Positions 10,711 to 39,028 of a stretch of DNA of 64,000 nucleotides are shown piece by piece (the first letter of the stretch is position 1; each line of letters begins with the position of its first letter). Position numbers and translations under genes: made by a program. The stretch is from an uncultured Clostridia bacterium (GTDB lineage Bacteria > Bacillota > Clostridia > Christensenellales > CAG-917), in contig CANQBO010000010.1 of assembly GCA_947589475.1 (NCBI GenBank), forward strand, positions 3,618 to 67,617, given 5' to 3'. The notes under the pieces are model-generated. The model was not told the DNA's origin. It ran no database searches and was given only the letters and a program-made list of their open reading frames with translations.

Positions 10711-10746
10711 CATCAAAAAATGCGCAACGCAAGTTGCGCTTTTTTA
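10711..10746. terminator. Bidirectional Rho-independent terminator
   Basis: AAAAAA-T-GCGCAAC-GCAA-GTTGCGC-TTTTTT; hairpin at 10722..10739 flanked by an A-run and a T-run. Confidence 0.7.
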
Positions 10747-14965: not shown

Positions 14966-17900
14966 TTATTTATTTTTTTCTTTTTTTCTGCGCCCGACGA
15001 AAAGCAAGGCGAACAGACCGATGAGGAATTGAGAGGCAAACAGACATACATACAGCGTTATATCCGTTTCTCCTATGTTGAGGAAGTCGTTGTAAACTTC
15101 GACTGTATAGAAGCTCTCGAGGCCGTCCCAATTTATTGTGTCGAGGACGGTGACTTTGACATAGTATGTGCCCATGCGAGCGTCCTTTATATCGCGATCC
15201 AGCTCCTGAGTGCACTCCTTGTCATAGTAGTATTTGATGATGACTTCGCCCCATTCCGCCTCGGGAAGGAGTTCGGGATCAGGCTCGTAGCCCTGTTGCA
15301 ATCTTTCTACCGAGTACTCTTTGAGCCACGAGTTGCGCACCTTCAAAATGGTGTATGCGCCCGCGTCGCCGAGTGATCCTTCGACCGTCAACGCGTAGTT
15401 GGCGTTTGTCAGGCTTGCCTCGATGCGATACACGCCCGCGTTGTGCCACGTCAAGTCGTCCTGTCCCTCGCCCCACAGCACGGACAGAGCAAAGCCGAGT
15501 TCGTCGCCGTCGAGCACACCCTCTATCTCGCTATGCGTGAGTTCAAGCAAGTCCTCGCCGTAATTCGTCGTCTTGTCGTCTACATGTACCGTAATGGGTT
15601 TGGGCGAAACGACGTAGTTGCCATAGACCACCGATAGCTCGTAGTTTGGATTGTCGTTGGTATAAATGAGTTCATAGTTATACCTGCCGGCGAAGTACGG
15701 AATACCGTCGGTCAGCGTGGCTTCGTCGCCGTCTATAACTGTGAGCGAGAAGAATTTGATGTCTTCGTTGAGGATGGGATCGCCGCCTCTGCCGAGCGTT
15801 GTGCGCCTGATCTCAAGCCAACTCATGATGTCGTCATTCGGCTCGACAAACTCGTCGCCGTACGTCCTGCCGCCGTCCTTGACGCGAATGGTCACCTTGC
15901 GAGGCACAACTTTGTATACGCTGTACTCGGCGACATTGTCGCTCACCTCGTAATTCGCTTGCGCGGCGGTGGGCGATGTCGGCTTGCTGACTTTGAGCCT
16001 GTACGAACCGACTGCGGGATAACCGTTCACCTTATTCTCGTACGGGTCGTCTATCCAATCGAATGTGTATCCGAGGTCGTCGCCGTTGACGATCGCGGGG
16101 CCTTCCTTGCCGTCCGCGCGGTAGCTTGCGCTGTGCGGATCGATCTCGTCGCCGTACTCGCTCTCGCCGTCGAAGGTCATGATGATGCGGCGCTTTGTCA
16201 CCTCATATTTGCCTGCCGCGTTGCCTATGCGGATGTCGGGCAATGTGCCTTCGTAGTCGCCCGTGAAGGTGATGTTGTAGTTGGGATTGTTGCTTTGAGT
16301 CGCGATTATGGGATATGTGCCGATGAACGTTGTCGTATCGACAAACCTGTCGTCCTCCATCGCCGCTCTCAACGTGATGTCAAGCACATCGCCGTTGACG
16401 ATGGCGTTGCCACCGACGCGGCTTGCCGACCAAGTGAGCGCGCTCACGTTGTCGCCGTACTCGCCCGCAGCGTTTTCTATCCTCACGAATATATCGCGCG
16501 GTCTTACGGTATATTTGCCGTCGACGAAAGCGACGATATAGTTTTTGTTGTCGAACGTCGCGGAGATCTGATACTCGCCCACGGGCGAAGTCCTGTCGAC
16601 GGGGCAACCGAGAGTGATGTCATATATATCCCTCGGCAACACGACTACGTTCTCGTCCGAGAATTCCGTCTTATTTGTGCGCTCCGCAGTCCAATCCTTA
16701 TCGTACTCATCCGCAAGCACATGTTCTTCGCCGTATTCGCCTGTCTGCGGGCGTACGCGGACGGTTATTCTGCGGCGCTCGATCGTGAGCGTGCCGTCGA
16801 TAATCGCGTTGACGTGATAGTTCTTGTCCAGCGCGATGGTCTTTGTGTCGATATACACTCTGTATCCCTCGCCCGCGTCCGCAGTGCTTGAGGTGTCCGT
16901 GGATACTTTGATCGCGTTGACTATTTCGTCTGCGTCTTGATATGCGATGCCGTTGCCCGTCTTGCCGTTTGAACGAGTCGCCGTCCAGCCGACCGAGTAG
17001 CCCTTGCTCTCGACAAGATCTTTATGGCGGTCGCCGTATTCGCTTGTGAGCGCCAGCGCTTTCAGATCTATCTCGCGCGGGAGCACTTCGTAGTTCGCGG
17101 TGATCGTGCCGTCAAGCGTATAGTTTGCCGAATTCATGACCGCGTTCACTTTGTAGACGCCTATGCCCTTAGTACGACCTTCCTCAAACACGTCGGTCGT
17201 ATCATAAGTTATCATCTTCTTTATGCTGTCCGCCGTATCGCCGGGAGCAAATTGCGTGCTTATGATGTCGGTCATGAAGCGCTCCGCCACGTCCGTATCG
17301 CCGTACTCGCCGCTTGCGGAGTGGACCATTATCGTCAACGTGCGCGGTGTGACGGTGTATATGCCCGCCTTGCCGTTGAGTCTCTCATAATACTCTTCGC
17401 TGTTCCACTCGCCCATGACGGTGATGTCGTAGTTGCTGCCTATTTCGTGCGAAGCGGATGTGTCTTGCTCAAGTATGATGATGTACAGTCCGACGGGATC
17501 GAACTTGACGTCTTTGTTGATCTCAACGCCCGTCGTCGCGTCTCTGACCGTGAATTGCAGGAATGAACGCTCCGTGTCGCGATTTACATTGAACCATTCC
17601 TCGTCCGCGGAAGTGAAGCCTGCGACCGTATAGTTCATAGGCATCGTGGGACGCTCGTCGCCGTAGACCGCGCTCCTCGTCTGGATGTTCACCGTGAGAC
17701 CTTTTTGATCTACGATGAGCTTTGCATACTTGTCAAGGACGTTATATCCGTCTCCATTGTCGAGCACGAAGGTGATATGATAGTTGAATTTGTCGTTATA
17801 TCCGCAGAGAAGCTTATATCCCGCCGCGTTCGCCTTGAGATATCCCGTGCTTGTATATTTCGCGCTTGCGGGATCGAGTTTGATGCTCGGCGCCAAAATT

Positions 17901-26900: not shown

Positions 26901-29900
26901 TCGCTGTTGACAATGGCGTATGTGCCCACAAGCAAACTGCCGTCCTTTTGATTATAGTGACCGTCCTTTATGGCAAGATTTATGTTGAGGCTGTCGTTTT
27001 TGTAAACGATGTAGTGCTTCGATGAGGATTCCGACGCATCCCAATCGGCTTTCCAATCCCACTCCACGCCATGGTCGCTGTATTTATCGGGGTCTACAAG
27101 TCTCCAACCTACGTTTTCCACATTGCTGAGCGCAAGCGATTGACCGTATGGCGATGTTTGGTCGATGATCTCCACCACCACGTTGCGAGCGACGATCTCG
27201 AATGCGCCCAAGACCTCTCTTGTGCCCGTGAAGTTGCCGCCCGCGCTTATAGTTGCGTTTGCGTCGCCTACGTTGACGTTGTTCAGGTAACCTATGATCT
27301 TAAACAGATCGTCTGTCAACTCAACTTCGCCGCTCTCCGTGTTTGCGCCTTTCTTGAAGATGATGGTTATGTCGCCGTCCGGCGTGACGGTCACGGACGA
27401 AATTGTGTTTTCTATCGTCATGCCCGTGTAGACCTTACTCGGCATTTCCACTTTGAACTCTTTTACGCTGTTTATATCAAGAGGCAGTATTTCAAACGTG
27501 CCCGTGGAACTTTGCTCGTCGCTCCTATTGTTGAAGGCATAGTTGCCCTTTTCGAGGGTCACTTGCACGTCGTACTTGTTTGCGTCAACGGGCTTTTTCT
27601 CGCTGAACGCGGCACTGCTCCTGTTCACGCGGTATTGCAAAGAGAACTTCTCTGCAATCTCTTCGTTTGCCGTCTCATCGTTTAGAGTATCGGTCTCATT
27701 GAGCAACGAGAATGTGACGTCGGGGGTCTGCTCCTTGCCGTTGTAGGTCGTGGACGCCATTTCGTTCAATTGCACAAGAGCCGGGTCGATGATGAATACT
27801 TTGGTTTGATTGACGGTATTGTTTTCGTCCGCCTTTATCCCTTGATTGCCGAAGCGGAAGTTGATGGCGTCGTCATCGCCGTTAAGCGTAACCGTGACGT
27901 CATAGTTGCCCGCGTTCAAAGGCTTGCTGTTCACTCCAAGCAAAGCGTTGTTGTCGGGACCCGCGCTGACCGCATAAGCGACCTCGTATGCCACGGGCAA
28001 AGCGGCGTTGTTGACGTTTGCATTGCGGAAGGAAACTGCGGCCTCATCTTTCAGGTCGTACTCGGCGTGCTTATAGGTGAGATGCGCGAAGTCATTGAGG
28101 TTGACCGTCGCGGGATTTATGCGATATACGATGGTCACAACGGGCACGTCCTTTGCAACGTCGGCGTAAATGCCGACAGCCGCGCCTTCGGTAGACGCAG
28201 GAGCTTCTTCTTGCCACTTGAGCACAGCCCCGCAGTTTGTCCGCCAATAGGTTTCGTCGGTGTCCCAGCGGTAGTTGGAATTTGTGAGAGTGATGGTTAT
28301 GCTGTACAAGCCCGCATAGGTCGAATTTTTTTCATCCGCGCCGAAGTTGTACTTCGTGTCGGTTGAATACTCGCCCGTGCGCGGGATCGTGTATGCGGAA
28401 TAGAACGCATACGTCGGCGTGTGACGCATTGCGTCGTACTCGAATGTGAGCGCGTCGGGCGATTCGTGATCGAAATCGGGATTGATGGAAACGGACGCCT
28501 TTGCCACCTCCACCTGCACGATGTACAAACCCGAATAGTTGCCTTGTCCCTTCGCCGTCACGCGGTAAATGCCCGCGTCGACAATTGCTTCTTGCTCTAT
28601 CTTTTCCCAGACCGCCTCGTTGGAGTTGGCGTCGCCCGAAACGAGCTTGTAATAGTTTTGGATATAGTCCGAGCCTGCCGCAATCGAAACCATAGGCTCC
28701 ACGACCTTATTGTAAAGGCGCGTCGCCACACCGTTTTGGCGCAACCCATTGTAAGTGAGGCTAAGCGCGGAGGCGATGGTCTCTTCGATCTGCGAGTCGT
28801 TGTCAAACGTTTTGTACTCGGAAATCGTGAACTTTGTGCCTTCCTCGTTCACTTCGCCCGTGCCCAAAGACTTCGGCGAAATGTCGAAGTGCAAGGTGAG
28901 ACTTCCCGAGAAGTTGTGTACGCCCGAGATCTGCACCGTGCCGCGGATCGTATCCTCATTGCCGACGTTGATGTTGTTGCTGTGGTTGATGTTTACTTCT
29001 TCGCCCGCCTCGAGCGTTCTGCCTGTCCCGTCGTTCAAGGTCTTGACCTTTACGCCCTTTACAGGTTCCCACGCGGTCGTGACATACGGGAACTTGTCGC
29101 CGTTGTACAAAAGCTCGGTCCAAGCGTCGCTCTTTTGCGAAGCGTTAGCTATAAGTTCAAGCTCCACGTTGTCCTGCGACAGCGCAAGCGCGTTGATGCT
29201 GTATGTCAACGTCGTTTCATACGCTCCGCCCGAGAATTGAAAGTTTCCTCCCTCTTTAAGCTTGATGACGACGGAATAGGTGCCGACATGTTTGTGCCCG
29301 TCTGTCAATTCGCCGACCTTTGTGCTGTTGCCCTCTTCATGTCCCGCCCAGCCGTCATAGCCGTATTGCGCGTAATAGTTTTTGTCTGTGAAGGTGTCGT
29401 CCTCTTTAAAGACGGGCGTGCGACTTATAGGCAGTGCGCCCGTATTGTCCGCGTTTGTAAACCACACCCAAAGCGCGTGCGATTTGCCGTCGTAAGTTAT
29501 CTGCAGGTCTGCGCCCGTAAGTTGCTTCTCGGCGTCGGTCGTATATGCGGTGTCCTCTTTGTCAAACAGATAGGGGTTGAGCGTCGCCGGGGTTATCGTG
29601 AAGGTGAATTCCCTCATGATGTGGCAACCGTCATCCGCCTTGCCCGCTGTGCAAGATGGTCTCAAAGCCTCGTCTTCGGGGAAAGAACCGCCGTCTATAT
29701 CATAGTTGCAGTTGTCAAGCACAAGTTTGAGCGTGAGCGTGCCGACGTAAGTGAATATGTTGCGCAGTTTCTGAATGTCGTCCGCATGGTCTCTGACAGC
29801 CTCTGCGGTAAACGTGACTACGCCGTCATCTGCATATGTGAAGTGCATATGATTGTGCCGGTCCGTATACTCTCCTGTGCCGTCGCAGAAGGGCGTGCAT

Positions 29901-32900
29901 TCGCCAAGGTGGACAAAGTTGCCTTCTTTCTGGTCCGTCGTATAGTGGAACACGGCAACTAGTTTGCCATCTTTGTAAATATAAAGTTTGTACGGAACGT
30001 CGTTGACCTTTGCGGTACTGCGCAGGTTGAGGAAGTCGATTGCCACCGCGTCGTTGGTGTGCCTGCCTTTTGCGCCCACATTTACGCCCCTGTCCGAGCC
30101 TTTAAGCAGATCCTCTTCGGGCTGTTCCTTATAAAGATTGTAGTCAAATACGGCTGTCGTCTTCTTTTGCAAAAGACTTATCGCAAGTTGCTCTATCTCG
30201 AAAGTAGATTGATAATAACAGCCCGCGCCGAACGTCAAGCTCAAGCCGCTGAGCGTTTTAATGTTAAGCTCTTCGCTTGTTATCTCGTTGCCCGTGTTCG
30301 TCGGATTGTTTGTGGCGACCGCAAGTTTATCCGTGAGCGAGCCGAAAATCGTGCTCGGGGTCAAAGTGGTCTCTTCCTCGTTTGCGCCCGAGATCTCAAA
30401 GTTGTTTGCGGCATCTCCCAACAGCACCACGCCGACGTCGTAGGTGTCCGCATAGCTCGGCAAGCCGATGAAGCCTTTGGCTTCATCAAAGCGTGACATC
30501 TCAAATGTCTGCAGGGTGAACCTAGGCGCAAAATACACGCCCCAATCGCCGTCGGCAGGCACAGTTGCCGCATTTGCGCTGTTGACAAACCTTACATTCG
30601 GCACTTGCAAAGCGCGGTCGAAAATGACGGTGCCGAACGCCGCGACGGAGATCTTCGCCTTGTTTACGATGACCTCGATGACGTACGCGCCCGTGAAGTT
30701 GCCGTCCTCTTTCGCTTTGGCTACCACATAATACGTGCCCGCGTTGATGGCGGTCTCGTTGCTTCCGAGTCCGTCGCCGAGCCACTTGTAATCGCTTTCG
30801 CCGGTCTTCTGCCAATATGTGACGATATAATCGGAAGTACGTCTGATGAAATATTCGTCGTCCCCGCGGTTGAGCGTGAGCGTGCTCGACATATCAAATG
30901 GGCTACCCGTATATGTGAAGGGACCTATGGCTGTGTTTTCAATATCTTTGTTGTTGCCGAAATTCTCGCCTTCGCCGAGAGTGAGTACGCTCACATCTCC
31001 GCTACCTTCGACATTCGATGTGCCCAACGGACGTTTCGCTATTTCAAACGTGACCGTCACGGTGCCCGTATAATCCTGCAAGCCGTTTATGGTTATTTTC
31101 GCATTTTTGCCCGCATTCATATTGTTGCTGTATACGACGTTATAATCGGAGTCGGCGATCAGGATCTTATACGTGTTTTCTCCGTCCGTCATGACCGACT
31201 TCGCGAGGTTTGTCGCGCAGACTTCTTGAAGCGGAGTCTTTGCCAAGCCGTCGTACATGGAATCGCCGCCTCTAAGTATGCCGCCCGCCTCTTCGCCTTT
31301 TGTAAATGTGAGCTTTCTGTTGCCTTCATCGGACAGATTATATTGCGATATAGTAAAGTTGGTCGTTGTCTCCGACGCGCCGCCCGAGAATTTGAAGTTG
31401 CCGCCCTCTTTGAGGTGCGCGGTGAGAGCATATGTGCCCGCGTGGACATATTGCGTCGCGGCGTCCCCTCCCGTATACCAGCCGCTGTACGAGGACGACA
31501 GCCAAAACTCGTTTTCGCCCTGAGTATAGTCGTTTGTCTTGTCATACAAGGGTAAAACATCCGGATTCAGGCTGTTTACAAGCTTCACATCGTGCGTCTC
31601 GGAATTGAGCGATTTCTTGTGATCCGCCCCGTCGAACGTACAACTCAATGCGCCCCAATCAACGCTTATCGTTGCCTGTTCTATGACGAAATTGCGCGTG
31701 ACTTTATTGCCCGCGATGCCTGCGACGGTATAGTTGTTTAAAGCCTCTTCCGTAAAGACGATATTGACTGTATAAGTGCGCGCGTTGTATGGAGCATTAT
31801 GCCCGCCAAGTTGATCCTCTTCGTAAGTTATGCTGTAGTTTGCGCCCTCTTCATTCGGGACGGGGTTGCCGATGCTGTCCGTAACGCTTACGTTTACGGG
31901 ATGTTCCACTTTGTCGAATACGACGGACGAAGGCGTCCCGACCACCATTGTAGCTTTGTTAATGGTATAGTTGAGACTTGACGTATCCACAGCGAAGTCA
32001 TTCGCCGCGGAGCCGTTCAACTTGAAAGCTATATCGTATGTGCCCGCGTTGAGCAGTGATTCCACAATGGAACCGTCATCCGCCACGTTGGGTTTCTTGT
32101 ACGTGATTATCCACTGATAGCCGTCCGTCTCGCTCTGGGAGGGCATGACGTTTTGGGGGTTTGGAGTGCCTATGGTGAGTCCCGCGAGGTCGGGTATCTT
32201 GCGCTCTGCGCCGTTATAAGTCCAACTTGACCCGCTTGCCGTGTAGGTGTTGATCTTAAGCCCCGCTTTTTCGACCGTAAGCACATCCTCATTGCTCGTG
32301 ACGGAGTCCTTTTGGTCGGTATCGCCGTCTGCGTCGACCGTATAATTTGTGCCCGCCACAAAGCGGTAGTTGCGCGTAGTCGTAGCCACGCTGTCGTTTG
32401 ACAGCGCCAGCTTAAACGCATACTTGCCCGCGTGGAAAAGCTCGCTCTCATGGTCGTTTGGCTCAAATGAGCTGTTCGGGGTCCACTTTCCTATTGATAT
32501 ATTATAGTCGCTTGTTGTCAGCAAGTTTTTGCCGTGTCCCTCTACTACTTCCAGCGAGAGGATGTCGGTCGGGGCGTACGCGGAGTTGCGGAAAACCATA
32601 TCCTTCGCCGCCGCAGAGAGTTTCACCTCGAGTTCCGCAGGCAGAATGGCGATCACAGTGCCCTCGGGCGCTTCTTCGCCGTTGTATCCCGCGATTGCGC
32701 TACCCTCCCAAGAGGCGCTCCACGTGATCTGCGTGGCGTTTGTATCGGTGTTGAGGGTATATCCGTCGCCCGCGACAAACTCTATGTTGTTTATTGCGTC
32801 GACTCCCTGCAGTTGCACGATGAGGACGTAATAGCCCGCGTCGATCGCGGTGACCGCGCCGAAGCCCGTTTTTTCGGTATCCACGCGATACGTCACTCTA

Positions 32901-35900
32901 TAGCCGTGAATGTTCTCGTTGGCGTTGTATTCGGGTGCGGTAAATGTCTCGCCCTCTATCGTATTTTCAAGTTTAAAGTGGGCGCCAAAGAAGCCCGCCG
33001 CCTTATCCGTGCCGTCATAGTAGACCCCTTCCGTAGGCAGTGCCTCTGTCAACACCAGCTTATTTCTTGCCTTGTTGATGACAAAGTCTATCTCGGCGGA
33101 GTTGGACGAGACATTTTTCCAAGTGTTTTTGGTGCCGAAAGTCGGGTCAACGCCGCTTGTTGAATAGTCAAACGCGTCCGACTCGTCCGAATTTATAAAA
33201 TCGGTGGAAATGACAAAGTTCCTTGCGCCGTCGCCCTGCAAAGCAAAGCGATAGGTGTAGGTGCCCGCGTTGATGAGTTGCGTATATACGCCGCCGTTCA
33301 TGGTGAACTGACGCACAGACCAACCGTTTTCTGCGGGACCGGAGCCTTGCGCGCCCCAAATCGCCAAAGCCGCGTCGCTGCCGTGACCGCTGTATATCTT
33401 GACGGTGACCAAACCCGCGGCACGTTGTTGGTTGCCCTGCGGGAATTTGGCATAGTAGTCCGTTTTATTGTAGAACACATTGCGGTTGACGCTCGTGCTC
33501 AGCGCAAGTTCCGCGGGCTTTATGGTGAACTGTTGATTGAGTTTGTTTTCGTCGGCGCGGTCGGTCAAAAGCGTATCCTGCCACGCGTAATTCGTCCCGT
33601 CCGTGAAAGTGAACGGCGCGGTGTAGGTGCCCGCAAACCAATACTCTTTCGGATCGCCGTCTATTTCTATGCCTTCCGGCGGTGTTTTGTCGGAAAAATA
33701 TGTGCCGCTGCCCTCGGGGGCGCTCATTGTGTAAATGTTGGGGACGGCGTCGTCGCTATCCTTGCCCAACAACTCGTTTTTGCGTTCCGAAGTCCAGCAT
33801 TCCGATGGCAGTTCGTTTACGCCCTCGGGGATCACCACTTCGGCATGCTTTGCGATGTGCGTGCCTATCGTGTCGCTTGTAATTCGCGTGCCGAAATACA
33901 ACTCATCGCTGAACGTCGGCGAGGTGATCTGCAACTTGTTTATGGTGACTCTCGCGGCGAGGTAGCCGCTGACTTTCGATTCGCCGACATCCGATTGCAT
34001 TGCGCCGGGATTGTTGTTGTTGATGAGAGTTACTTCATAGTCCTTGTTGATTTGGGCGTCGGGGTTCTTGCTGATGAGGACATATATGTCGTATGACCCT
34101 GCCTTGACCTCATTTGGCTTAAAGTCGGGCACATAGGACGCAAGCGCTTCGTTGACGTCGTCGCCAAGCACCAAATCGCCGCCCACGGGTTGCGCCGCCG
34201 CGGTAGTGACGGAAATATGCTCATATGAAGTACTGCCGTAATACGTCCAGGTGTAGGTGTCCGTGCCCGCGATACGGGTCGGGGTAAGCATTATATTTTT
34301 CTGGTCGTCGATTTCGGGTGTGACAATACCGAGCGACGATATATCGCGGTACAGCGATACGTTCAGCGCGAGCGGCCTCGGCTCGACGGTGATTTTGCTT
34401 GTCGGAGCGCTGTCTGCGGAGGCAAATTCGTAGTCCTGATAACCGTTTGTTGCGTCGATTTTTATGCCGACGGTGAATTGCAAGTTTTGACCGACGTGCG
34501 GGGTTATATCGTCGTCGCCCTTGCCGCTTATGGACAAGGTGTAGGCGTCCTTAGGGGTCTGACCCGCGGGCAAGCCCTCGGTGGTCGTTATTGCGGAGCC
34601 GTAAAGGAAGTCCTCCACCGTGCCGAAATCATCATATCCCGCTTGTTTATCGGCATAGACATAGTCACCGTAGGTTATCGTCTGGGGTCTCGTCGTGACG
34701 GTGACCTTCTTTCTGAGCACGTCAAACTCGGAGATCTGCCACGTGGAATTTGTGCTTGTCAAGCCGTTTACCCACGTTTGGAAAGCGGCTTCGTCCATAG
34801 TCGTGTTGTCGAAAGTTTCCGACCAATCGCCCGCAAATATGACCCAAGAACCCGCATGCGTCCCCGAATTGAAATACTCGTTAAATGCGGTAGCAAATTG
34901 ACCTTCCGTGATGTCAACAACATTTTCGAGGCGATAGATCCCTGCGTCGTCCTTGCGGAACATCGTGAATGTACCCTGAGATACGCCGTCTCGCGGTTGG
35001 TTGAAATATCTGTACGGGTCGTCGCCGTACGTCCAGTGTCTGTTTTCGTAATCGGTGGTGGTGTTCAGTTTGAGGCGGAACACGCTGTACAGCACTACTT
35101 GGTCGTTTTTGTCAAGTTGGTCGCGTGTGATAGAAAAGTCTTGTCCTATCGGGATATAGCTGTCTTTGTCGGGTTCTCTCACCCATACTTTGCCGCCGAC
35201 GGTGCTATCCATCGTCCAACCGATAAACTCAGCAGAGGGGTGCTCAAAAGCCGGCGCGGGCAAATTGACCGTGCTGACAAGCCCCGTTTTGTCCGTAGGA
35301 GTGACTTCGGGCAATGAGCCGGTCATTGTTTGCTCATACTCACGCTTGTTGACTTTAAGCAACGCCCTGCCCGTATCGTCATACACCATATCGCCGGGAA
35401 TGTTCTCGCCGGTTATCGTCTCTGTGAGACCGTGTTGGAAATGCACCGAAGCGTATATATCTATGGATATTGTAAATTGAGTTATAAACCTTTTTACTCC
35501 GTCTTCGCCGCCAGCATCGTAGTTTGAACTGCCGTTGTTTTTTATTGCATCAGCCAAAGCGTCGTTTTCATAGAATATTTGGAAAGAATATGTACCGCTG
35601 TCCGGCGCCTCGTCCCAAAACAGCATATAAAAGTCTTGCGCCGCGCCCTTATCTTTATTCTTATCCTGCGGGTCTCCGACAGTATCTTTCGGCAACAGTG
35701 TGACCTCCGTCCCATCTGCTTGTATCAATTTGCCGTAGTCATCTTGTTTGATTTTTACGGGTCCGTCCATTTGATTGAGCAATTCAACGTTTGATATTCT
35801 GTTGAGTTGGTTCATCATTCTGACGCCGAAGCGCAAGTTCGCGCCATAGCCGAAAAATGTGCCTTGAGAGTCGTACTTTTCAACAGGGATAGCAAACACG

Positions 35901-38620
35901 GGGTCGTCGGTCGGCATATCATATGCCATATTGCCCTTGTTGGAGGCGTGTTTCAGCACGGGCAAATATTTTTCGTAGTCTGTGGCTGTAGCGCTGCTCT
36001 CTTGCGGCAAACCTATTTCATACACATATGGGCTGTAATCGTCCATATAGTGGACTGTTGGCGTGGTGGTACCCCTTTTTATGCCCGCCGCGCCCGCTAC
36101 GGATGAGGAGTGCTTGCCTGTGAATTTCAAATATTTGCCGTTTTCACGCGAAAACACGTTGTCCGACTCTTGCGTGCGGTATTGCAAATAGTATATATCC
36201 GTCAAATTGGGCGCTTTGGCGTCAAGATATGCCGTACCGAAAACCGTCTTGCAGTATCCGAAATAAACCAACGAGGTGTTGAGAATTGTGCACCCGCGGA
36301 AAGCATAAAGCCCAACTTGCTCCAACCCTGCGGGGAATTGCAAATATGTCTCGATTGTTCCCGGATAAAATGACCAGTCTCCTATTTTTTTCAACGTACT
36401 CGGGAATATAAGTCCGTCCGTTTGCTTCATGGCGTTGCCGTCTGCCGTCAGAGTCGTAGTACCTTTTACTGTTCCGGTGACCAACATGTATCCGGTCTCT
36501 TCCACCCCCTCGGGAAATTTCAAAGTTTTTAAAGTAGTACCAAGTCCGGAAGATCCGGAGATCACAATGGTTCTGTCGCCTTTATTGTGTCCGTTGGGTT
36601 TACCGATGATTTTTACATCGTAGGTCTTACTTCCGGTGACAAGTTTACTCGGAAATGTTAAAGATTGACTCCCTGCATTATAATTCCAATCGGAACCTTC
36701 TTCGGTACCACTTGTATTGTTTTTTAAGTTTGCCTCATTTGTGCGCACGAGCTGAACTGTACCGTGCGCTCCATTATCGACAGCCTCTGTCAATACTATA
36801 CAGTCCCAAATGTTATTAAATCTGACAGCCGCTTGAAGGGTCGTGCTTCCGAAAGTTATTTCCGACCCCGGGTTGATACAACCAAATGGATACGTTTTGG
36901 TCTCCCAAACGGAATATTCCTCGGGGCGGTCATGCAAGTTGCCTATGTTGCGCGGGTCGCCCGTCAAATTTTTGAAAACTATATCGGGAGTTGATGTCGC
37001 CGTGACAAACGCCGATTGAGAAATCTTGAATGTTTGATCGTCAAACGCTCCCCAAATGTTTACGGTAGTTATTGCATCGCATCCATTGAAAGCCCAAAAT
37101 CCTATCTGTGAACATTGATCGGGAATATTTATCACCCCGGTACCTGTGCCTGTATGATTTGTCGTCGTAATGGAATTTAAGCGCGTACAACCTTCAAACG
37201 ACATTGCAGCGATTTTTTCGATAGTATCGGGAAGTCCGCTTATAGAAGTTATATAATTGGACTGCTTGAAACATGATGTTGGCAATTGCGTCATGCCTAC
37301 ATCTCCCCACCCTGTAGCAAAAGTAACTGTTGTAATACTCGTATTATTGTTTAGTGCACCGGGAGCTAATTTTGTAAAACTGTGTCCGCCTATTGAAATC
37401 GGCACAGTGACACTTGCAGAAGCCCCATTATAAGGTCCCAAGATGCCTCTGCGACTATTGTAATACCATCTTGTATTACTGTCATATCCATATCCTGTCG
37501 CACCGGTATTGTACGTGACATTTGTTCTGGAGAACCCCCAGGGATAACATTCGCATGTGCCCGGAGCGCCTTTGCAATATACAGATACATTCAGTCCATT
37601 GCCATCGTGGTCGTTGGTTGTATAATCACCATAGATTCTGTTTGCTCCTTCATTCCAGACCACCTCAAAAGGTTGCTCTATCACATTGCCCAAAGAAGCG
37701 GGGATAACAAAATAGCTCACGCCATCTATGCTTTCAAGATTTATTTCAACACGGTGGAAAGCGCTGTCGCCTATCTCATAAATGCCTGTACCGTCGGGAT
37801 AAAAAGTCGTTTCGCCAACTGGGTCAAAACTGTCAAGCCCGTTTTTTTCGCGTTCATCATCGGGTAGTTCAAATTCTTTCAACTGATAATCATAGATGAA
37901 GCATTTTGAGCCAATAGTTTTCAAATGGATACAAGCCTGCAAGCTCTCATTCTCACCTACTTGCATACTCGTATAAGTTTCTTCACTCGCAACTGCTTTG
38001 TGATAGCTTTTCACTCGCGTCAAACTCTTGCAAGTGGCAAAACATCCTTCACCGAGAGAGGTTATGGACTCGGGAAGTGTGATTTGCACAAGGTCGCTCG
38101 AGGCAAAACAAAAGTCGCCAATATCTTGTATGGCAACACCCATATCCTTGCAATCTGCGGGAAGCCTGTCATAAGCGGCGGCGCGCTCGGATTGCAATTC
38201 ATCCGGATATGCCTTGTCTCCGCCTCCGCCTTCTTCAAGCGTGTTGAATTTTATATAATTTATCGAAGCGGCTCCTCCGAAAACACCCGCCTCTATGCCG
38301 AGTATGGGATAACCGTTATATTGGGCGGGAATGACGGCAGGATTGTCTGCCGTGCCGAAAGTACCGTCACCGTGATATTGATAGCTTGTGATGATATAGC
38401 CCTGCACGCCGTTGACATATTGCAGGTCGCTGTAATACAAATATCGAGAAAGAGGCGTCTCTTCTGTTGCCGCGTACACGTCGGCGGCGGGTGGGGATAT
38501 GACTGCCGCGCATATAGACACAAAAAGGAATATTGCAAAAATGATAAGCAAGCTCTTCTGCAGTTTGGATATCGAAAGGTTCTTCAATTCTTGTCCCTCC
38601 ATTTTGTCAACATCTCGCAC
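14966..38620 (-). CDS. Giant cell-surface repeat protein (7,884 aa): signal anchor, BspA-type LRRs, MBG-like (YGX-type) repeat array, C-terminal TM anchor
   Basis: Uninterrupted 23,655-nt ORF in the track. GTG start at 38620; alternative in-frame ATG at 38602. N-terminal hydrophobic LLIIFAIFLFVSICAAVI followed by an AxA-like site. LRR_5/BspA-like repeats (IGDFCFASSDLVQITLPESITSLGEGCFATCKSLTRV, LKTIGSKCFIY) at ~36460..38320. One Listeria/Bacteroides-type repeat (AEFIGWTMD). About 50-55 units of the form T(V/I)xxRx(I/L)TVx(V/I)xDQxxxYG(D/E), each ending in NY-(V/I)-F. The C-terminus LYVCLFASQFLIGLFALLFVGRRKKEKNK is a TM helix plus a basic tail. Confidence 0.9.
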   Translation of the reverse strand: MRDVDKMEGQELKNLSISKLQKSLLIIFAIFLFVSICAAVISPPAADVYAATEETPLSRYLYYSDLQYVNGVQGYIITSYQYHGDGTFGTADNPAVIPAQYNGYPILGIEAGVFGGAASINYIKFNTLEEGGGGDKAYPDELQSERAAAYDRLPADCKDMGVAIQDIGDFCFASSDLVQITLPESITSLGEGCFATCKSLTRVKSYHKAVASEETYTSMQVGENESLQACIHLKTIGSKCFIYDYQLKEFELPDDEREKNGLDSFDPVGETTFYPDGTGIYEIGDSAFHRVEINLESIDGVSYFVIPASLGNVIEQPFEVVWNEGANRIYGDYTTNDHDGNGLNVSVYCKGAPGTCECYPWGFSRTNVTYNTGATGYGYDSNTRWYYNSRRGILGPYNGASASVTVPISIGGHSFTKLAPGALNNNTSITTVTFATGWGDVGMTQLPTSCFKQSNYITSISGLPDTIEKIAAMSFEGCTRLNSITTTNHTGTGTGVINIPDQCSQIGFWAFNGCDAITTVNIWGAFDDQTFKISQSAFVTATSTPDIVFKNLTGDPRNIGNLHDRPEEYSVWETKTYPFGCINPGSEITFGSTTLQAAVRFNNIWDCIVLTEAVDNGAHGTVQLVRTNEANLKNNTSGTEEGSDWNYNAGSQSLTFPSKLVTGSKTYDVKIIGKPNGHNKGDRTIVISGSSGLGTTLKTLKFPEGVEETGYMLVTGTVKGTTTLTADGNAMKQTDGLIFPSTLKKIGDWSFYPGTIETYLQFPAGLEQVGLYAFRGCTILNTSLVYFGYCKTVFGTAYLDAKAPNLTDIYYLQYRTQESDNVFSRENGKYLKFTGKHSSSVAGAAGIKRGTTTPTVHYMDDYSPYVYEIGLPQESSATATDYEKYLPVLKHASNKGNMAYDMPTDDPVFAIPVEKYDSQGTFFGYGANLRFGVRMMNQLNRISNVELLNQMDGPVKIKQDDYGKLIQADGTEVTLLPKDTVGDPQDKNKDKGAAQDFYMLFWDEAPDSGTYSFQIFYENDALADAIKNNGSSNYDAGGEDGVKRFITQFTISIDIYASVHFQHGLTETITGENIPGDMVYDDTGRALLKVNKREYEQTMTGSLPEVTPTDKTGLVSTVNLPAPAFEHPSAEFIGWTMDSTVGGKVWVREPDKDSYIPIGQDFSITRDQLDKNDQVVLYSVFRLKLNTTTDYENRHWTYGDDPYRYFNQPRDGVSQGTFTMFRKDDAGIYRLENVVDITEGQFATAFNEYFNSGTHAGSWVIFAGDWSETFDNTTMDEAAFQTWVNGLTSTNSTWQISEFDVLRKKVTVTTRPQTITYGDYVYADKQAGYDDFGTVEDFLYGSAITTTEGLPAGQTPKDAYTLSISGKGDDDITPHVGQNLQFTVGIKIDATNGYQDYEFASADSAPTSKITVEPRPLALNVSLYRDISSLGIVTPEIDDQKNIMLTPTRIAGTDTYTWTYYGSTSYEHISVTTAAAQPVGGDLVLGDDVNEALASYVPDFKPNEVKAGSYDIYVLISKNPDAQINKDYEVTLINNNNPGAMQSDVGESKVSGYLAARVTINKLQITSPTFSDELYFGTRITSDTIGTHIAKHAEVVIPEGVNELPSECWTSERKNELLGKDSDDAVPNIYTMSAPEGSGTYFSDKTPPEGIEIDGDPKEYWFAGTYTAPFTFTDGTNYAWQDTLLTDRADENKLNQQFTIKPAELALSTSVNRNVFYNKTDYYAKFPQGNQQRAAGLVTVKIYSGHGSDAALAIWGAQGSGPAENGWSVRQFTMNGGVYTQLINAGTYTYRFALQGDGARNFVISTDFINSDESDAFDYSTSGVDPTFGTKNTWKNVSSNSAEIDFVINKARNKLVLTEALPTEGVYYDGTDKAAGFFGAHFKLENTIEGETFTAPEYNANENIHGYRVTYRVDTEKTGFGAVTAIDAGYYVLIVQLQGVDAINNIEFVAGDGYTLNTDTNATQITWSASWEGSAIAGYNGEEAPEGTVIAILPAELEVKLSAAAKDMVFRNSAYAPTDILSLEVVEGHGKNLLTTSDYNISIGKWTPNSSFEPNDHESELFHAGKYAFKLALSNDSVATTTRNYRFVAGTNYTVDADGDTDQKDSVTSNEDVLTVEKAGLKINTYTASGSSWTYNGAERKIPDLAGLTIGTPNPQNVMPSQSETDGYQWIITYKKPNVADDGSIVESLLNAGTYDIAFKLNGSAANDFAVDTSSLNYTINKATMVVGTPSSVVFDKVEHPVNVSVTDSIGNPVPNEEGANYSITYEEDQLGGHNAPYNARTYTVNIVFTEEALNNYTVAGIAGNKVTRNFVIEQATISVDWGALSCTFDGADHKKSLNSETHDVKLVNSLNPDVLPLYDKTNDYTQGENEFWLSSSYSGWYTGGDAATQYVHAGTYALTAHLKEGGNFKFSGGASETTTNFTISQYNLSDEGNRKLTFTKGEEAGGILRGGDSMYDGLAKTPLQEVCATNLAKSVMTDGENTYKILIADSDYNVVYSNNMNAGKNAKITINGLQDYTGTVTVTFEIAKRPLGTSNVEGSGDVSVLTLGEGENFGNNKDIENTAIGPFTYTGSPFDMSSTLTLNRGDDEYFIRRTSDYIVTYWQKTGESDYKWLGDGLGSNETAINAGTYYVVAKAKEDGNFTGAYVIEVIVNKAKISVAAFGTVIFDRALQVPNVRFVNSANAATVPADGDWGVYFAPRFTLQTFEMSRFDEAKGFIGLPSYADTYDVGVVLLGDAANNFEISGANEEETTLTPSTIFGSLTDKLAVATNNPTNTGNEITSEELNIKTLSGLSLTFGAGCYYQSTFEIEQLAISLLQKKTTAVFDYNLYKEQPEEDLLKGSDRGVNVGAKGRHTNDAVAIDFLNLRSTAKVNDVPYKLYIYKDGKLVAVFHYTTDQKEGNFVHLGECTPFCDGTGEYTDRHNHMHFTYADDGVVTFTAEAVRDHADDIQKLRNIFTYVGTLTLKLVLDNCNYDIDGGSFPEDEALRPSCTAGKADDGCHIMREFTFTITPATLNPYLFDKEDTAYTTDAEKQLTGADLQITYDGKSHALWVWFTNADNTGALPISRTPVFKEDDTFTDKNYYAQYGYDGWAGHEEGNSTKVGELTDGHKHVGTYSVVIKLKEGGNFQFSGGAYETTLTYSINALALSQDNVELELIANASQKSDAWTELLYNGDKFPYVTTAWEPVKGVKVKTLNDGTGRTLEAGEEVNINHSNNINVGNEDTIRGTVQISGVHNFSGSLTLHFDISPKSLGTGEVNEEGTKFTISEYKTFDNDSQIEETIASALSLTYNGLRQNGVATRLYNKVVEPMVSIAAGSDYIQNYYKLVSGDANSNEAVWEKIEQEAIVDAGIYRVTAKGQGNYSGLYIVQVEVAKASVSINPDFDHESPDALTFEYDAMRHTPTYAFYSAYTIPRTGEYSTDTKYNFGADEKNSTYAGLYSITITLTNSNYRWDTDETYWRTNCGAVLKWQEEAPASTEGAAVGIYADVAKDVPVVTIVYRINPATVNLNDFAHLTYKHAEYDLKDEAAVSFRNANVNNAALPVAYEVAYAVSAGPDNNALLGVNSKPLNAGNYDVTVTLNGDDDAINFRFGNQGIKADENNTVNQTKVFIIDPALVQLNEMASTTYNGKEQTPDVTFSLLNETDTLNDETANEEIAEKFSLQYRVNRSSAAFSEKKPVDANKYDVQVTLEKGNYAFNNRSDEQSSTGTFEILPLDINSVKEFKVEMPSKVYTGMTIENTISSVTVTPDGDITIIFKKGANTESGEVELTDDLFKIIGYLNNVNVGDANATISAGGNFTGTREVLGAFEIVARNVVVEIIDQTSPYGQSLALSNVENVGWRLVDPDKYSDHGVEWDWKADWDASESSSKHYIVYKNDSLNINLAIKDGHYNQKDGSLLVGTYAIVNSDDGSVHLESVNENYNVKFVGSWSGEGDNQKTAGTYEVTPREIVLTIGDLISEYGTYKQEDIENGSMLDKESLIKDSYNVSSYQGDAILSDDKDALLKGISLSVVHNDNWSAGTNKWLNVGKYAIVVKYVVGDTESTYYLASGTTDAGYTYNVGAQYKITLAGNFDGEDGEYGADSGVEQTSYKAHAGVFEVTPKSIIIEITHIEHEYDGQEPKQNEYSWGLKEGSVLAEGDEDSILGVKLSKNPGFDVGVYSITGTYTTTGSYIVNFENGINAVTITPRRITVQINDQSKTYDGEAVTLEQGEGTWEAKLDESSTYTPGDAIVNSDDLQITLLNTHISLNAGSYPIVATCANTNYQVMSWTGSWENKLSPGNNFDVIDGEAGTYTIDKCSVTVTIYSQSGVYGNNQHKGIDSTQYNAWVVKKGSTVYEGDNLGIAVTIVDANSYLSEKGKQLNAGWYAIEVTYNNGNYDVTFECQHNIKTDDNNVTAEDVNSHAISGSWNDEHTEYTVENGYRIYPRRLEITVANQEDDYKGTGVAPTVKQKAELSDAWRATNVLNGSMPPFVEGEEEDFRISLGVKPVESGKWNAGNYEIVGEVTNEGDKNNYVIDRIQNGTFTIKPLAVTVTVTTQSYAVYNGTDWAADFNTKSKTVETFANDYWSADGVLDDDQALFAKAIQLNLPGEAKAANVYSASAAWRDDADADIMTNYALSYEGGNKFTVNKRSLSVEIKDATSVYGENFAALTQGAITCTNDETDTHDQGIIGSDDLGIELLKNGGRDKGKYAITGNWNNNGNYEVTFTGSWNEDGSNKDHAGTYTITERKLTVHVNDQGGVFGGRTYTNLSQLQGTNEKDLGWYIVDFTDKTGISGDNLAAKTYIIPGDSLQIVLTLNNDTSSADYAGKCAIKAVCNNANYDVTFTGSWDGEGSYDDGTELKGKAGTFTVAKRQVTVKVLDQKRAYNGEALTMTGLNSKNRGWTEEVTNDDDNYTVTFVDSVDLGGGRKTAPEIKVSLSVEGAKNVGKYLIHIRITRDGTVIFNSSETELSDTVKLNEAGQLVVTTNEYEITVVGTQTRTDVASDDAKQVKVCGEYEITQKEVTLTIEDKMSTYGEDRATLTWRDLAGGIVSADSETIKEAITLSIQNMAENLRGETYLVAGTYHITAEVASNETSDNYKFSFVGTTGTEGYGIYTVGKRGIGLRVNDQSVVYGTDAKFAYTIVSLPGTTGAVILSCDEGLFEGVIKYEVLNQQLSNSSHLNVGTYPIWISLNTDESKAGDVKVITDNYEITFTGLWSGDAVTGPTTPGAAGTLTVTAKLITVTGITSESNVALTSEYGDAVPDDWSYSSDGAFEGDIVEVAYSLNASETANVGTYPVTVALARADESNDNANYTMAMARTVEYNITARRVKFVEPSVKEIVYGNTREYPEIVVERDGKEGEWNKYASGGDINDVKVDITVVGETLSTSGFLRVKMQSGEVIGYDITLSLSGVNASNYQITNASATFEQKLKVNKRPVTVTIDDQTSVYAEKEKPLTYKVEGEDAGEGIALAADGTGLAKGDDRSLLSITLTRQGLSEGQSDVDVYAITGTFNCPDYEVVFSGNWDKDGNTDGDSANDNHAGVYKITERNIRIEIYNQSAIYGESISVTSIQGTDWDVLDAAIVDGVQYYGLKPGDSLGIELQIVGKYDTDKYSVRPRGFYTIDFDEAKVNANYKVTLVREDMPTDEVAQRDYADDYQAIYSSDPAVKEFMWGGQYPISEKLRSLGSGMFFVTVREVNVHINNQNGIYGDEHKLVQTIEGDAPAYRIGLPAGSKATGDAFVDGLKVEFELVTTAYGSEDKSGQLSYAGEYPIYGKGMTATRKGVSLESTDEILRNYRIGFSGAWTGEEEYPSGSTYKNRVGVFTVNRRQVNVTVNDSTVTYGALDHYKNLEATDKRLDIFNQSSYTASATNSSGAAFVNGDLDVLALKLYINYHASDLSGGQALKVGSYMINVDYRSKSDNEDQQKIIDSYVITPQIGAKLIVERANITISILNGAATDKGTTYGDDLSEAEVTWNSVDNTNMYTVAGGFVTGDKLDFTLTSSTIALVKEGIYPAAGNYAIYATWQAESEIGDNANYNTPTWTGAFTKGIDPKDDHYAGTAGIYTVAKKGIEVTIDDAEAEYGESTDIEFSYKLPEGWAVAGDDESDLGIKLFTDAKAGSPVSATGYAIKGNATGANYDVTFKGSYIDDASGTLNIYPRKIVVVIRPQSSVYGTNPMASYETTKWFVVRDGKAVTSDTQGNESVWTSVFGEAKEKSMGELSITLTKGITYVDGSTWSNGNGQFVGKYAITGRCDNNNYDVVFAKWTTDDAEDYRDIVENTWGEYEITPLDVTITIKDREGVYGSILTDGVTQLRYNAKLVNTLNTAWTYGEASGTFTVGHEQYLAFYLRGDAEKGNIYAEVGEHRIEGVWAQGITESDADHYGIKKNYNVKFVDQAGEDSYGAFTVTPATIQQNNRTAEDGETFTGTLWNQTQLYRGEAVSYSLKVDAGYFFFAGDLSFGADDKGTVTYDAATVKYTDLKKDNQFVVEGEVSEDKLNITNYGVWTVDVTIKKANHKDATFTLTLTVVQADLTVTLKDGVKFEKTYGDYLADGQAAKGGARTFAQLQEDLKAWLFDTKVISKIDGAENIADDLESVIKTLLKITGDDAITVSIFTTTENTSSGGYLNAGNYIITFVVNGNIKIKFADTYSVVSVKQKELNMKWKPADGDLPNIQENYKDNASLFTYRYDGEDHNVTATPIDTLEGDLVANFGMQRYLIGKDKGETPQYELRLVGEYRVAVIVDSNPNTVGNRDISNYAIRSVDLYVTIVAVDITVLIKDRQCEYGEQDIDPNTEGAWEIISGAEALPAGEDLRIVLSLETFTSERRQSGTSRISGRSDNENYKVKFVGSFGETLEGRNDGNGGTYTVKQREIVVNVHDITVAYGTYTSEDLKDLNFVDLGDAAFTTSRPDDPAGYAVMSQNSAITIFPDDMEILAPSIKLDPASAKYTSTGYLKANAAGYKLLCGYNDKFNYHITFVLDNGDGYNVLDKYAKLIVDQKGLTVNIQTRSAVYGDERPTMPMNYTVAGFTSADEEWFNVNRDTERSFLQFTVRDATTGVEINKDVKFDPVGLYIIILEQDTSASHEIGSNYDITVMGEWNSEEYYERLNGKAGIYTVTPRTLTIMVHSASGEYGDTDVAERFMTDIISTQFAPGDTADSIKKMITYDTTDVFEEGRTKGIGVYKVNAVMNSANYTLDGTITANYEVLPREIDLKALALTSEYGDRHKDLVESKGYSVGWTATRSNGKTGNGIAYQDADEIVNAIKVSTDTSSTADAGEGYRVYIDTKTIALDKNYHVNAIIDGTLTIERRRITVRVRPQTGEYGEEHVLADEYDKDWTAERTNKTEFSDENVVVLPRDIYDITLGCPVDRTSPVGEYQISATFDNKNYIVAFVDGKYTVRPRDIFVRIENAAGEYGDNVSALTWSASRVGGNAIVNGDVLDITLRAAMEDDRFVDTTTFIGTYPIIATQSNNPNYNITFTGDYEGTLPDIRIGNAAGKYEVTKRRIIMTFDGESEYGDEIDPHSASYRADGKEGPAIVNGDDLGYTFDWIDDPYENKVNGYPAVGSYRLKVSKPTSPTAAQANYEVSDNVAEYSVYKVVPRKVTIRVKDGGRTYGDEFVEPNDDIMSWLEIRRTTLGRGGDPILNEDIKFFSLTVIDGDEATLTDGIPYFAGRYNYELIYTNDNPNYELSVVYGNYVVSPKPITVHVDDKTTNYGEDLLELTHSEIEGVLDGDELGFALSVLWGEGQDDLTWHNAGVYRIEASLTNANYALTVEGSLGDAGAYTILKVRNSWLKEYSVERLQQGYEPDPELLPEAEWGEVIIKYYYDKECTQELDRDIKDARMGTYYVKVTVLDTINWDGLESFYTVEVYNDFLNIGETDITLYVCLFASQFLIGLFALLFVGRRKKEKNK
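15200..34715 (-). repeat. Array of diverged MBG-like repeat units inside the giant ORF (boundaries approximate)
   Basis: First clear unit VTVTTRPQTITYGDY is encoded at ~34715. Last unit VVSPKPITVHVDDKTTNYGED is at ~15600. Units are diverged at the DNA level; I saw no long identical stretches. Confidence 0.7.
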
Positions 38621-38683: not shown

Positions 38684-38711
38684 AATATACACCCCCCCCC
38701 CGCATTGTCAA
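38684..38711 (-). promoter_or_regulatory. Candidate sigma-A promoter of the giant gene, with a G10 tract in the spacer
   Basis: - strand reads TTGACA (38711..38706), then atgc-GGGGGGGGGG-tg (16 nt), then TATATT (38689..38684). It lies 64-82 nt upstream of the candidate start codons. Confidence 0.55.
38692..38701. repeat. Homopolymer C10 (+) / G10 (-), tract 1
   Basis: Ten consecutive C counted directly at 38692..38701. Confidence 0.95.
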
Positions 38712-38867: not shown

Positions 38868-38877
38868 CCCCCCCCCC
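38868..38877. repeat. Homopolymer C10 (+) / G10 (-), tract 2
   Basis: Ten consecutive C counted directly. Same flanks as tract 1 (caCCCCCCCCCCg), 176 nt away. Confidence 0.95.
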
Positions 38878-39028
38878 GTATTTTTCGGACAAACTGCCCA
38901 TACGCCCTTGAAAATCTCGATTTTTTGCCCCGATTTTGCCTTGCGATCGCCCCGCAAGCGAATTCCCGCATTTTTGACGGCGTTCCCCTCTCCCGCGAGC
39001 GCACGCGCGCGCACTCGCCGCGCCCGAC

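Follow-up and report, generated by a model that had tools for sequence, protein, structure and literature searches.

What is a single uninterrupted reading frame of 23.6 kb doing in the chromosome of a gut anaerobe, is it a genuine gene, and what might its product do at the cell surface? The frame lies in a stretch of 64,000 nucleotides (hereafter the window; contig CANQBO010000010.1 of assembly GCA_947589475.1, positions 3,618 to 67,617 of the forward strand) from an uncultured Clostridia bacterium. It encodes a giant protein with leucine-rich repeats (LRRs) near the N-terminus, a long array of other repeats, and a hydrophobic C-terminus. Metagenomes commonly contain giant surface proteins of uncultured gut Clostridia, yet hardly any have been studied. 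We regard it as reasonably probable that this one is exported by Sec, stays anchored in the membrane, and works as a fibre-like adhesin, with a tip that would consist of the LRR head and of an adjoining module without recognised relatives, which we call the orphan module. A first-pass annotation of the window, made from the letters of the DNA, had already proposed a fibre-like adhesin anchored by its own helix. The layout of head, stalk, and transmembrane (TM) helix that it described holds; the adhesin function is an extrapolation from the types of domains.

A continuous gene of 23.6 kb

The frame occupies positions 14966..38620 of the minus strand (as do all features below unless stated otherwise), opens with a GTG, and runs for 7,884 amino acids (aa) to its only stop, the terminal one. 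The list of open reading frames and the translation agree on this, as originally described, and no other stop-free stretch of the window comes near it in length. The frame is as first listed, and what changes is the length of the product. A ribosome-binding site, GGAGG, and a probable TTG start codon lie at 38585..38602, with the TTG at 38587 and GGAGG 8 nucleotides (nt) upstream. We take this TTG as most likely the true start, giving 7,873 aa, because the string GGAGG(A/G)ACAAGAATTG is kept in the window and in two orthologous loci (L003 and L004) and because gene callers give a 7,873-aa product on public contigs. All residue coordinates nevertheless follow the 7,884-aa version with the GTG start.

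Could the frame be an artefact of assembly that joins several repeat-protein genes into one, or a dead gene that is open in the consensus only? All sequences available are short-read metagenome contigs, none of them based on long reads across the giant gene, and assemblers are known to have trouble with repeat-rich genes. Yet a number of arguments make this explanation very improbable. First, the repeats are diverged at the nucleotide level, as the initial annotation had it: there are three off-diagonal pairs in total, the best being 54 nt at 87% identity. Collapse or chimerism in assembly is very unlikely because repeats with almost no DNA identity leave nothing to collapse or mis-join. Second, separate assemblies carry the same 7,873-aa product. 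The protein of the neighbouring gene, NrdD, is present on four public contigs, two of which we read (ENA assemblies ERZ27249211, 108 kb, and ERZ27249206, 32 kb). These represent the same strain in other samples. Over 22.4 and 13.5 kb, respectively, they match the window at 99.99% identity, with one indel and one substitution in 35 kb, and both carry the 7,873-aa gene call. Third, in orthologues at 32-62% identity, the units follow each other in the same order and the frame is open from end to end. Fourth, signal peptide, anchor, ribosome-binding site, and promoter are all conserved. Fifth, a frame of 23.6 kb is far beyond chance expectation and would close without selection. Since the same-strain contigs and the orthologues on the head side and on the tail side align with the window, the whole length of the gene is covered by independent collinear evidence. 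These comparisons show that the gene is real and continuous, in line with the earlier view that it is no assembly artefact. The product is large, but its first placement among the largest class was overstated, as bacterial proteins of 10,000-85,000 aa have been reported (10.1101/2023.11.21.568195).

Signal peptide, LRR head, and orphan module

The N-terminus, initially read as a signal anchor, is better described as a predicted cleavable Sec signal peptide (38471..38587, aa 12-50; hydropathy peak at aa 15-49), because the AxA site before ATEETPLSRYLYY is kept in five species. The version in the window is VYA followed by ATEE, with predicted cleavage after VYA. The head proper (36266..38125, aa ~166-785) is made of LRRs of the BspA type, as proposed before: the Pfam family LRR_5 (PF13306) scores 92.3 bits for a gathering cutoff of 27.7 and matches four stretches within aa ~166-850. 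LRR_5 proteins outside the family have at most 31% identity over part of the head, very short stretches excepted. The part of the gene coding for the LRR head (window 36001-38000) has a G+C content of 0.45, lower than that of the stalk (0.51-0.55) and also lower than that of the rest of the window, which could result from the amino-acid composition or from a separate history of the head.

The best-conserved part of the whole protein comes immediately after. The orphan module (34721..36265, aa ~786-1300) has a mean column identity of 62% across five species and long invariant motifs (VHYMDDY, HASNKGNxAYDxP, RFGVRMM, AEFIGWT..GGxVW, and QLDxNDQ..VYSVFRLKLN); the last LRR probably takes up its first ~30 aa. 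It has no match in Pfam and no significant sequence match in the PDB by profile search. Among 1.84 billion representative sequences, only four clusters match it, all of them giants of the same family. The first-pass annotation had seen here a region of ~800 aa with one Listeria/Bacteroides-type repeat. That repeat was rejected: the corresponding Pfam family, Flg_new (PF09479), has no match at E<=1 for aa 800-1300 and is equally blind, at the same threshold, to the isolated 79-aa segment holding AEFIGWT...LYSVF (AEFIGWT...VLYSVF). About 500 aa of the region form the best-conserved module rather than a loose linker. Among the Pfam families that had been named for the protein, LRR_5 and the MBG type (as MBG_2) were matched and Flg_new was not.

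A stalk of two types of repeats

The repeats that follow make up a strongly acidic stalk that accounts for over 80% of the giant protein. Hidden Markov models (HMMs) built from the protein itself give a total of ~55 units, close to the 50-55 first estimated by eye. These units were thought to share a single MBG/YGX pattern, but only ~37 (about two thirds) fit it, the other ~18 (aa 1453-3808) being of another type. The first unit (34388..34720, aa 1301-1411) is MBG_2-like (YGX), with E=8e-10 for the HMM of its own type. Stalk part 1 (27197..34264, aa 1453-3808) consists of ~18 diverged type-B units of ~105 aa each, with the motif YxG ... NAGTY ... NF/NY ... F.I.KA, 16 of which are significant with their own HMM (E from 1e-10 to 1e-27). 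They can be called MBG-like by motif only. Pfam MBG_3 has weak matches to two of the 18 (best E=0.0032), the region stays below the gathering scores of both MBG (PF17883) and MBG_3 (PF18887; 10-12 bits on 500-aa fragments for a cutoff of 25), and a comparison of the type-B and type-A profiles aligns 27 C-terminal columns with a probability of 33%. Stalk part 1 also contains a stretch of ~270 aa (window 29516-30325, aa 2766-3035) that neither repeat model matches. It includes a cluster of Cys and His residues, GECTPFCDGTGEYTDRHNHMHF, which is unusual for an otherwise Cys-poor protein, and might represent a metal site or a domain inserted into the stalk.

Stalk part 2 (15350..27196, aa 3809-7757), delimited with our own HMM and Pfam, has ~36 type-A units of the MBG_2 (YGX) kind, each of ~85-135 aa and with the pattern R.LTV...YG...G.Y.I...NY.V.F. 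By their own HMM, 32 of these units are strong, one is weak, and three fill gaps. Pfam MBG_2 (PF18676), a family defined from the stalk repeats of bacterial surface proteins (10.1101/2020.12.24.424174), scores 141.7 bits for a gathering cutoff of 25, with seven stretches passing in the C-terminal half of the protein. It matches 13 of the 36 type-A units individually, while our own HMM unites all ~37, including the one at aa 1301-1411. The mean column identity among repeats is 17-21%, and sequence searches of the PDB with the profiles of both repeat types gave nothing significant. Same-strain contigs have an equal product of 7,873 aa, and those of related species span 5,682-10,122 aa, a range in which the number of repeats is compared across species rather than across a set of close strains. 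Between species, the stalk units are orthologous one to one.

The giant protein is poor in cysteine and acidic, with a net charge of about -480. Such composition fits a second explanation, under which the protein would be a surface spacer, a shield, or an envelope-integrity protein and not an adhesin, with the acidic brush as its working part and the LRR head as a secondary element. The brush would cover the shorter molecules of the surface, keep cells from clumping or attaching, or hold phage, immune factors, or neighbouring cells at bay. A role as shield or spacer has been shown for Ebh, SraP, and SasG in Staphylococcus aureus (PMC6548404), the stalk dominates the protein and has kept its length, unit by unit, across species, and an on/off switch at the promoter, as discussed below, would suit the alternation of attached and free states. 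However, conservation peaks in the distal module of the head and not in the stalk, which points to a specific interaction at the tip, and a simple brush has no need of a structured head of 1,250 aa with LRRs. We hold a shield to be a serious but less likely rival, and favour the adhesin.

A C-terminal helix as the putative anchor

The stalk ends in a domain of ~95 aa (15065..15349, aa 7758-7852) that aligns with those of three other giants (L007, L008, and L009) and of a further relative (P0157) and that has no family match in Pfam or NCBIfam. It is followed by the predicted TM anchor DITLYVCLFASQFLIGLFALLFVG, the tail RRKKEKNK, and the stop codon (14966..15064; helix at aa 7853-7876 by hydropathy). 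Strong hydrophobicity is confined to the two ends of the protein, with one segment at each; the residues at aa 6733-6752, which exceed the hydropathy threshold slightly, are a charged strand at the boundary between repeats. The helix is unusually conserved, with the motif D.T.Y.C.FASQF.I and the RRK tail kept in three orthologues, and with a variant in P0157 in which V and Y replace C and F. There is no LPXTG-like motif in the C-terminus (...NDFLNIGETDITLYVCLFASQFLIGLFALLFVGRRKKEKNK) or in those of the orthologues, and searches of NCBIfam with both halves of the protein and with its ends matched nothing, including models of sorting signals. Sequence and NCBIfam are therefore in agreement with the initial description of a hydrophobic helix, an RRKKEKNK tail, and no LPXTG. 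The topology suggested by these features is one of Sec export, with the C-terminal helix acting as a stop-transfer segment and the tail remaining inside the cell.

A narrow family of giants from rabbit guts

How widespread are such proteins? The first 1,289 aa were searched against species-representative genomes and retrieved four orthologues, with 65, 63, 45, and 36% identity over the entire query, all from 'Lapin' (rabbit) gut metagenome-assembled genomes (MAGs) labelled uncultured Clostridia bacterium. Their frames are open to the end of the available DNA (at least 4,550-4,661 aa), and three of the four are collinear with the window protein across thousands of residues. L003 and L004 have 51-53% identity with it over ~3,400 aa, and the alignment of L004 extends to aa 5109. 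Three further MAGs (L007-L009), reached via homologues of the downstream gene, encode giants of 10,122, 6,664, and 6,307 aa; in the first of these (L007), the last 3,312 aa are collinear with aa 4551-7883 of the window protein at 62% identity. An additional full-length relative has 5,682 aa. Pairwise BLASTP served to examine the ends of P0156 and P0157. The most distant orthologue (L006, 10001-23779; P0158), with 36% identity in the head, has both the LRR head and the orphan module, and its stalk has a few MBG-like units followed by 'YILVGWT...LYAVW...DWEE' repeats that Pfam does not recognise. Because this protein keeps the head yet switches the type of stalk repeat, the head of the family is, judging from these sequences, combined with different stalks.

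The JGI metagenomes, scanned with the head protein and then with the alignment of the five heads, yielded no relatives. A word-indexed homologue search with the head (aa 1-1300) returned remote LRR_5 proteins only, and returned neither the window's own protein nor its 65%-identical orthologues. This index seems to be without giants, and the absence of orthologues there is uninformative; the library of representatives, by contrast, includes the window protein (P0155). The family appears narrow and is known only from rabbit-gut MAGs.

This distribution bears on the nature of the ligand. The protein might be a tether to other microbes or to food particles, with a head that binds the surfaces of bacteria or of plant cell walls in the caecum and that may hold partners or substrates close. 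The restriction of the family to rabbit-gut MAGs, from a fibre-fermenting habitat, and the lack of matches in the JGI metagenomes scanned speak for this possibility, and LRR-bearing giant proteins of Clostridia from mammalian guts have been proposed to bind the surfaces of other cells (10.1101/2023.11.21.568195). Yet Pfam finds no carbohydrate-binding module, dockerin, or cohesin in the giant protein, and a neighbouring gene for an M60-like peptidase (see below) points to mucin. The data are compatible with both host and non-host ligands, and we consider such a tether improbable.

A conserved partner gene and its surroundings

The giant gene is directly followed by a partner gene (11204..14905) of 1,233 aa, or 1,229 aa as called, whose homologues adjoin giants in three other MAGs. 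An exact-sequence look-up of the 1,233-aa version from its GTG start found no record, the called product having 1,229 aa. The homologues (L007-L009, 10001-12871) lie directly downstream of the giants of 10,122, 6,664, and 6,307 aa, with gaps of 6-58 nt compared with 60 nt in the window. Since these close homologues directly follow giants in three other MAGs, giant and partner are a conserved two-gene module within the clade. Terminators on the minus strand were not found between the two genes. The first terminator-like hairpin after the partner (10722..10739; a 7-pair stem and a T run, matched by consensus only) is the probable end of a two-gene transcript, and the partner is probably co-transcribed with the giant gene.

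The partner protein has an N-terminal TM helix, is rich in glutamate (19.5% E), and has two copies of a ~165-aa 'uL15-like' domain; in alignments, the TM helix is nearly invariant and the middle is variable. It also has four to five acidic repeats of ~100 aa (VITFPESLRGDWVVEGHEGVHVLIEEH...) and a long Glu/Pro-rich tail. The ~165-aa domain reads LRYDRSFTARFIQS...KVKARMSW...TLC...DTPCMYRLKN, and distant homologues that have it are labelled 'uL15 family ribosomal protein' in some sources. A general pairing of 'uL15-like' membrane proteins with giants was considered and rejected, as the distant homologues of the partner are not beside giant genes.

Synteny upstream of the giant gene is not conserved. 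The surrounding genes (NrdD, thioredoxin reductase, TldD/PmbA, Trk, a KdpD-like kinase, MATE, and HAD hydrolases) are those of an ordinary anaerobe chromosome, and an origin in a mobile element or plasmid was rejected on account of this housekeeping context. A pair of TldD/PmbA-type metallopeptidase genes (7548-8951 and 8956-10239, plus strand) converges with the operon of giant and partner, and the hairpin at 10722-10739 between them looks like a bidirectional terminator. At the edge of the window (3-5132, minus strand) lies a second large gene for a secreted protein of at least 1,710 aa, which runs off the start of the window and includes an M60-like peptidase (enhancin/mucinase type) and regions of F5/8 type C and LRR_5/DUF285. 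The M60-like peptidase suggests a mucin-targeting lifestyle at the gut surface.

A candidate phase-variable promoter

Upstream of the giant gene, a promoter scan identified a putative, near-consensus sigma-70-type promoter, TTGACA-16-TATATT, with a tract of ten G in the spacer (38684..38711). Its full sequence, TTGACA-ATGC-G10-TG-TATATT, has 11 of 12 consensus positions and lies ~95 nt upstream of the TTG; on the plus strand, the tract is C10 at 38692-38701. A second G10 tract (38868..38877) lies ~175 nt further upstream, in the intergenic region, and these two are the only G/C homopolymers of at least eight bases in the 64-kb window. The homologous promoters have G10 (L003, 9824-9833) and G9 (L004, 9836-9844), with spacers of 18 and 17 nt, compared with 16 nt in the window. 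The two differences from the same-strain contigs are found close by: a single indel sets the window apart from L001 and falls within the second tract at 38868 (11 bases in L001, 10 in the window), and a single substitution, in the comparison with L002, is at 38891, 14 nt past the end of this tract. A homopolymer in the promoter spacer before a gene for a surface protein is the classical layout of slipped-strand phase variation. The layout and the tract lengths in orthologues suggest that the promoter of the giant gene is a candidate phase-variable promoter, a hypothesis that we regard as well-founded.

Proposed mechanism and its implications

The observations above can be combined in a model in which the locus is a two-gene surface module of an anaerobic Clostridia bacterium of the rabbit gut. 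Transcription would start at the sigma-70-type promoter with the G10 spacer and translation at the TTG at 38587. The 7,873-aa product would pass through Sec by means of its cleavable N-terminal signal peptide, until the single C-terminal helix stops the transfer and anchors it in the cytoplasmic membrane, with RRKKEKNK inside the cell. Outside, the ~55 diverged MBG-type domains of ~105 aa would form a long acidic stalk, of the order of 0.2 micrometres if each unit spans ~4 nm, that carries the distal head beyond the wall. There, the LRR block and the orphan module would bind a ligand, for instance on the mucus or epithelium of the host, on particles of plant material, or on other microbes. The low identity between neighbouring repeats would make the array stable to recombination, such that its length shifts slowly and between species (from 5.7k to 10.1k aa), whereas slippage in the G tract would change the length of the spacer and so raise or lower the expression of this very costly protein. 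The membrane protein encoded downstream would be a conserved partner, and its TM helix may pair with that of the giant, as the conservation of the two helices suggests.

Several observations weigh against this model. The annotation of LRR_5 proteins as adhesins is for the most part one of analogy. The rod shape of the stalk and the fold of its units are assumed from tandem domains in other surface proteins (10.1101/2020.12.24.424174). Single units were modelled with AlphaFold2, as the first-pass annotation had proposed: the type-A MBG_2 unit reached moderate confidence (predicted local distance difference test, pLDDT, 72.9; predicted template modelling score 0.65) and had no fold match in the PDB with Foldseek, and the type-B unit, modelled with 18 paralogues, had a pLDDT of 51 and is unusable. 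A rigid rod is thus only assumed, because the type-A model is moderate and matches no solved fold. The envelope of the organism may have one or two membranes. By the positive-inside rule, most of the partner would lie in the cytoplasm, a poor match for a simple role as extracellular co-adhesin. As for the switch, the poly-G tract is absent in L005 and L006, the length of the promoter tract is identical in three same-strain assemblies, all of them consensus contigs, and the difference in length of the second tract could be a homopolymer error of short reads. The short-read origin of the assemblies counts on this side too. A more ambitious combination, in which the orphan module is a new ligand-binding or catalytic domain, the TM helices of giant and partner are a novel device for the anchoring or assembly of giant surface proteins in Clostridia, and the poly-G promoter switches the whole module on and off, seems improbable to us when all its parts are taken jointly.

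The locus is a well-bounded example of its kind: both ends of the gene are complete, the start codon, signal peptide, and anchor are assigned, the stalk is mapped unit by unit, and there is a set of orthologues of 5.7k-10.1k aa. It provides three leads: a head module without relatives, which is likely the business end of the protein; a conserved partner membrane protein; and a possibly phase-variable poly-G promoter. If these leads are true, the locus shows how a gut anaerobe controls and anchors a protein of 0.85 MDa without sortase. If they fail, it encodes an ordinary, though very large, LRR/MBG surface protein.

Comparison with known systems

The putative switch has precedents elsewhere. 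One class of phase-variable promoters has a homopolymer in the spacer between the -35 and -10 elements, as in porA and opc of Neisseria, and the G9-G10 tract between near-consensus hexamers has the same arrangement. In contrast to the Neisseria type, no variation of the promoter tract was seen within one strain, in a comparison that covers consensus contigs only. To our knowledge, there is no established example of such a phase-variable promoter in Clostridia.

The giant protein shares with the BspA-like LRR_5 proteins of gut and oral Bacteroidota, Firmicutes, and others the LRR_5 head, the secreted or surface location, and the gut as the environment of the organism; it differs in that its LRR block is followed by an orphan module of 500 aa and a stalk of 6,500 aa. 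Its general architecture is closer to that of Periscope proteins (SasG, Rib, Sgo_0707), in which an N-terminal binding domain sits on a rod of tandem repeats and whose study led to the creation of Pfam MBG_2 (10.1101/2020.12.24.424174). They have in common the logic of head, stalk, and anchor, MBG_2 repeats in the stalk, and a length of the stalk that varies among relatives (here 5.7k-10.1k aa). However, Periscope proteins have highly similar, recombining DNA repeats, whose number varies between strains, and an LPXTG end, whereas the repeats of the giant are diverged in DNA and protein, far from the high identity that defines that class, its units are orthologous one to one, and its anchor is a TM helix. 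The lack of the LPXTG motif sets it equally apart from the substrates of sortase.

Ebh/Embp, the staphylococcal protein of ~1.1 MDa, resembles the giant in design, as a very large surface protein of the Gram-positive kind. A membrane-spanning segment at the C-terminus, and not sortase, keeps Ebh in place. The two have no sequence relationship, no FIVAR, GA, or DUF1542 repeats were found in the giant, and the heads and the families of repeats differ. The expression of Ebh is regulated and its effect on surface interactions depends on length (PMC6548404). Finally, the giants of gut Clostridia (10,000-30,000 aa; 10.1101/2023.11.21.568195) come from the same class of Bacteria and from mammalian guts, including that of the rabbit, have LRRs among their listed domains, and have been proposed to function in cell adhesion. 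The survey of giant genes that described them reported RCC1, Listeria-Bacteroides, and YG repeats, with giants of the RCC1 type lacking TM anchors (10.1101/2023.11.21.568195). Compared with these, the window protein is smaller, has a stalk of the MBG type and a conserved TM anchor, and is followed by a partner gene. The types of domains involved are already known, and the giant belongs to a known class of giant bacterial surface proteins rather than to a new kind of system.

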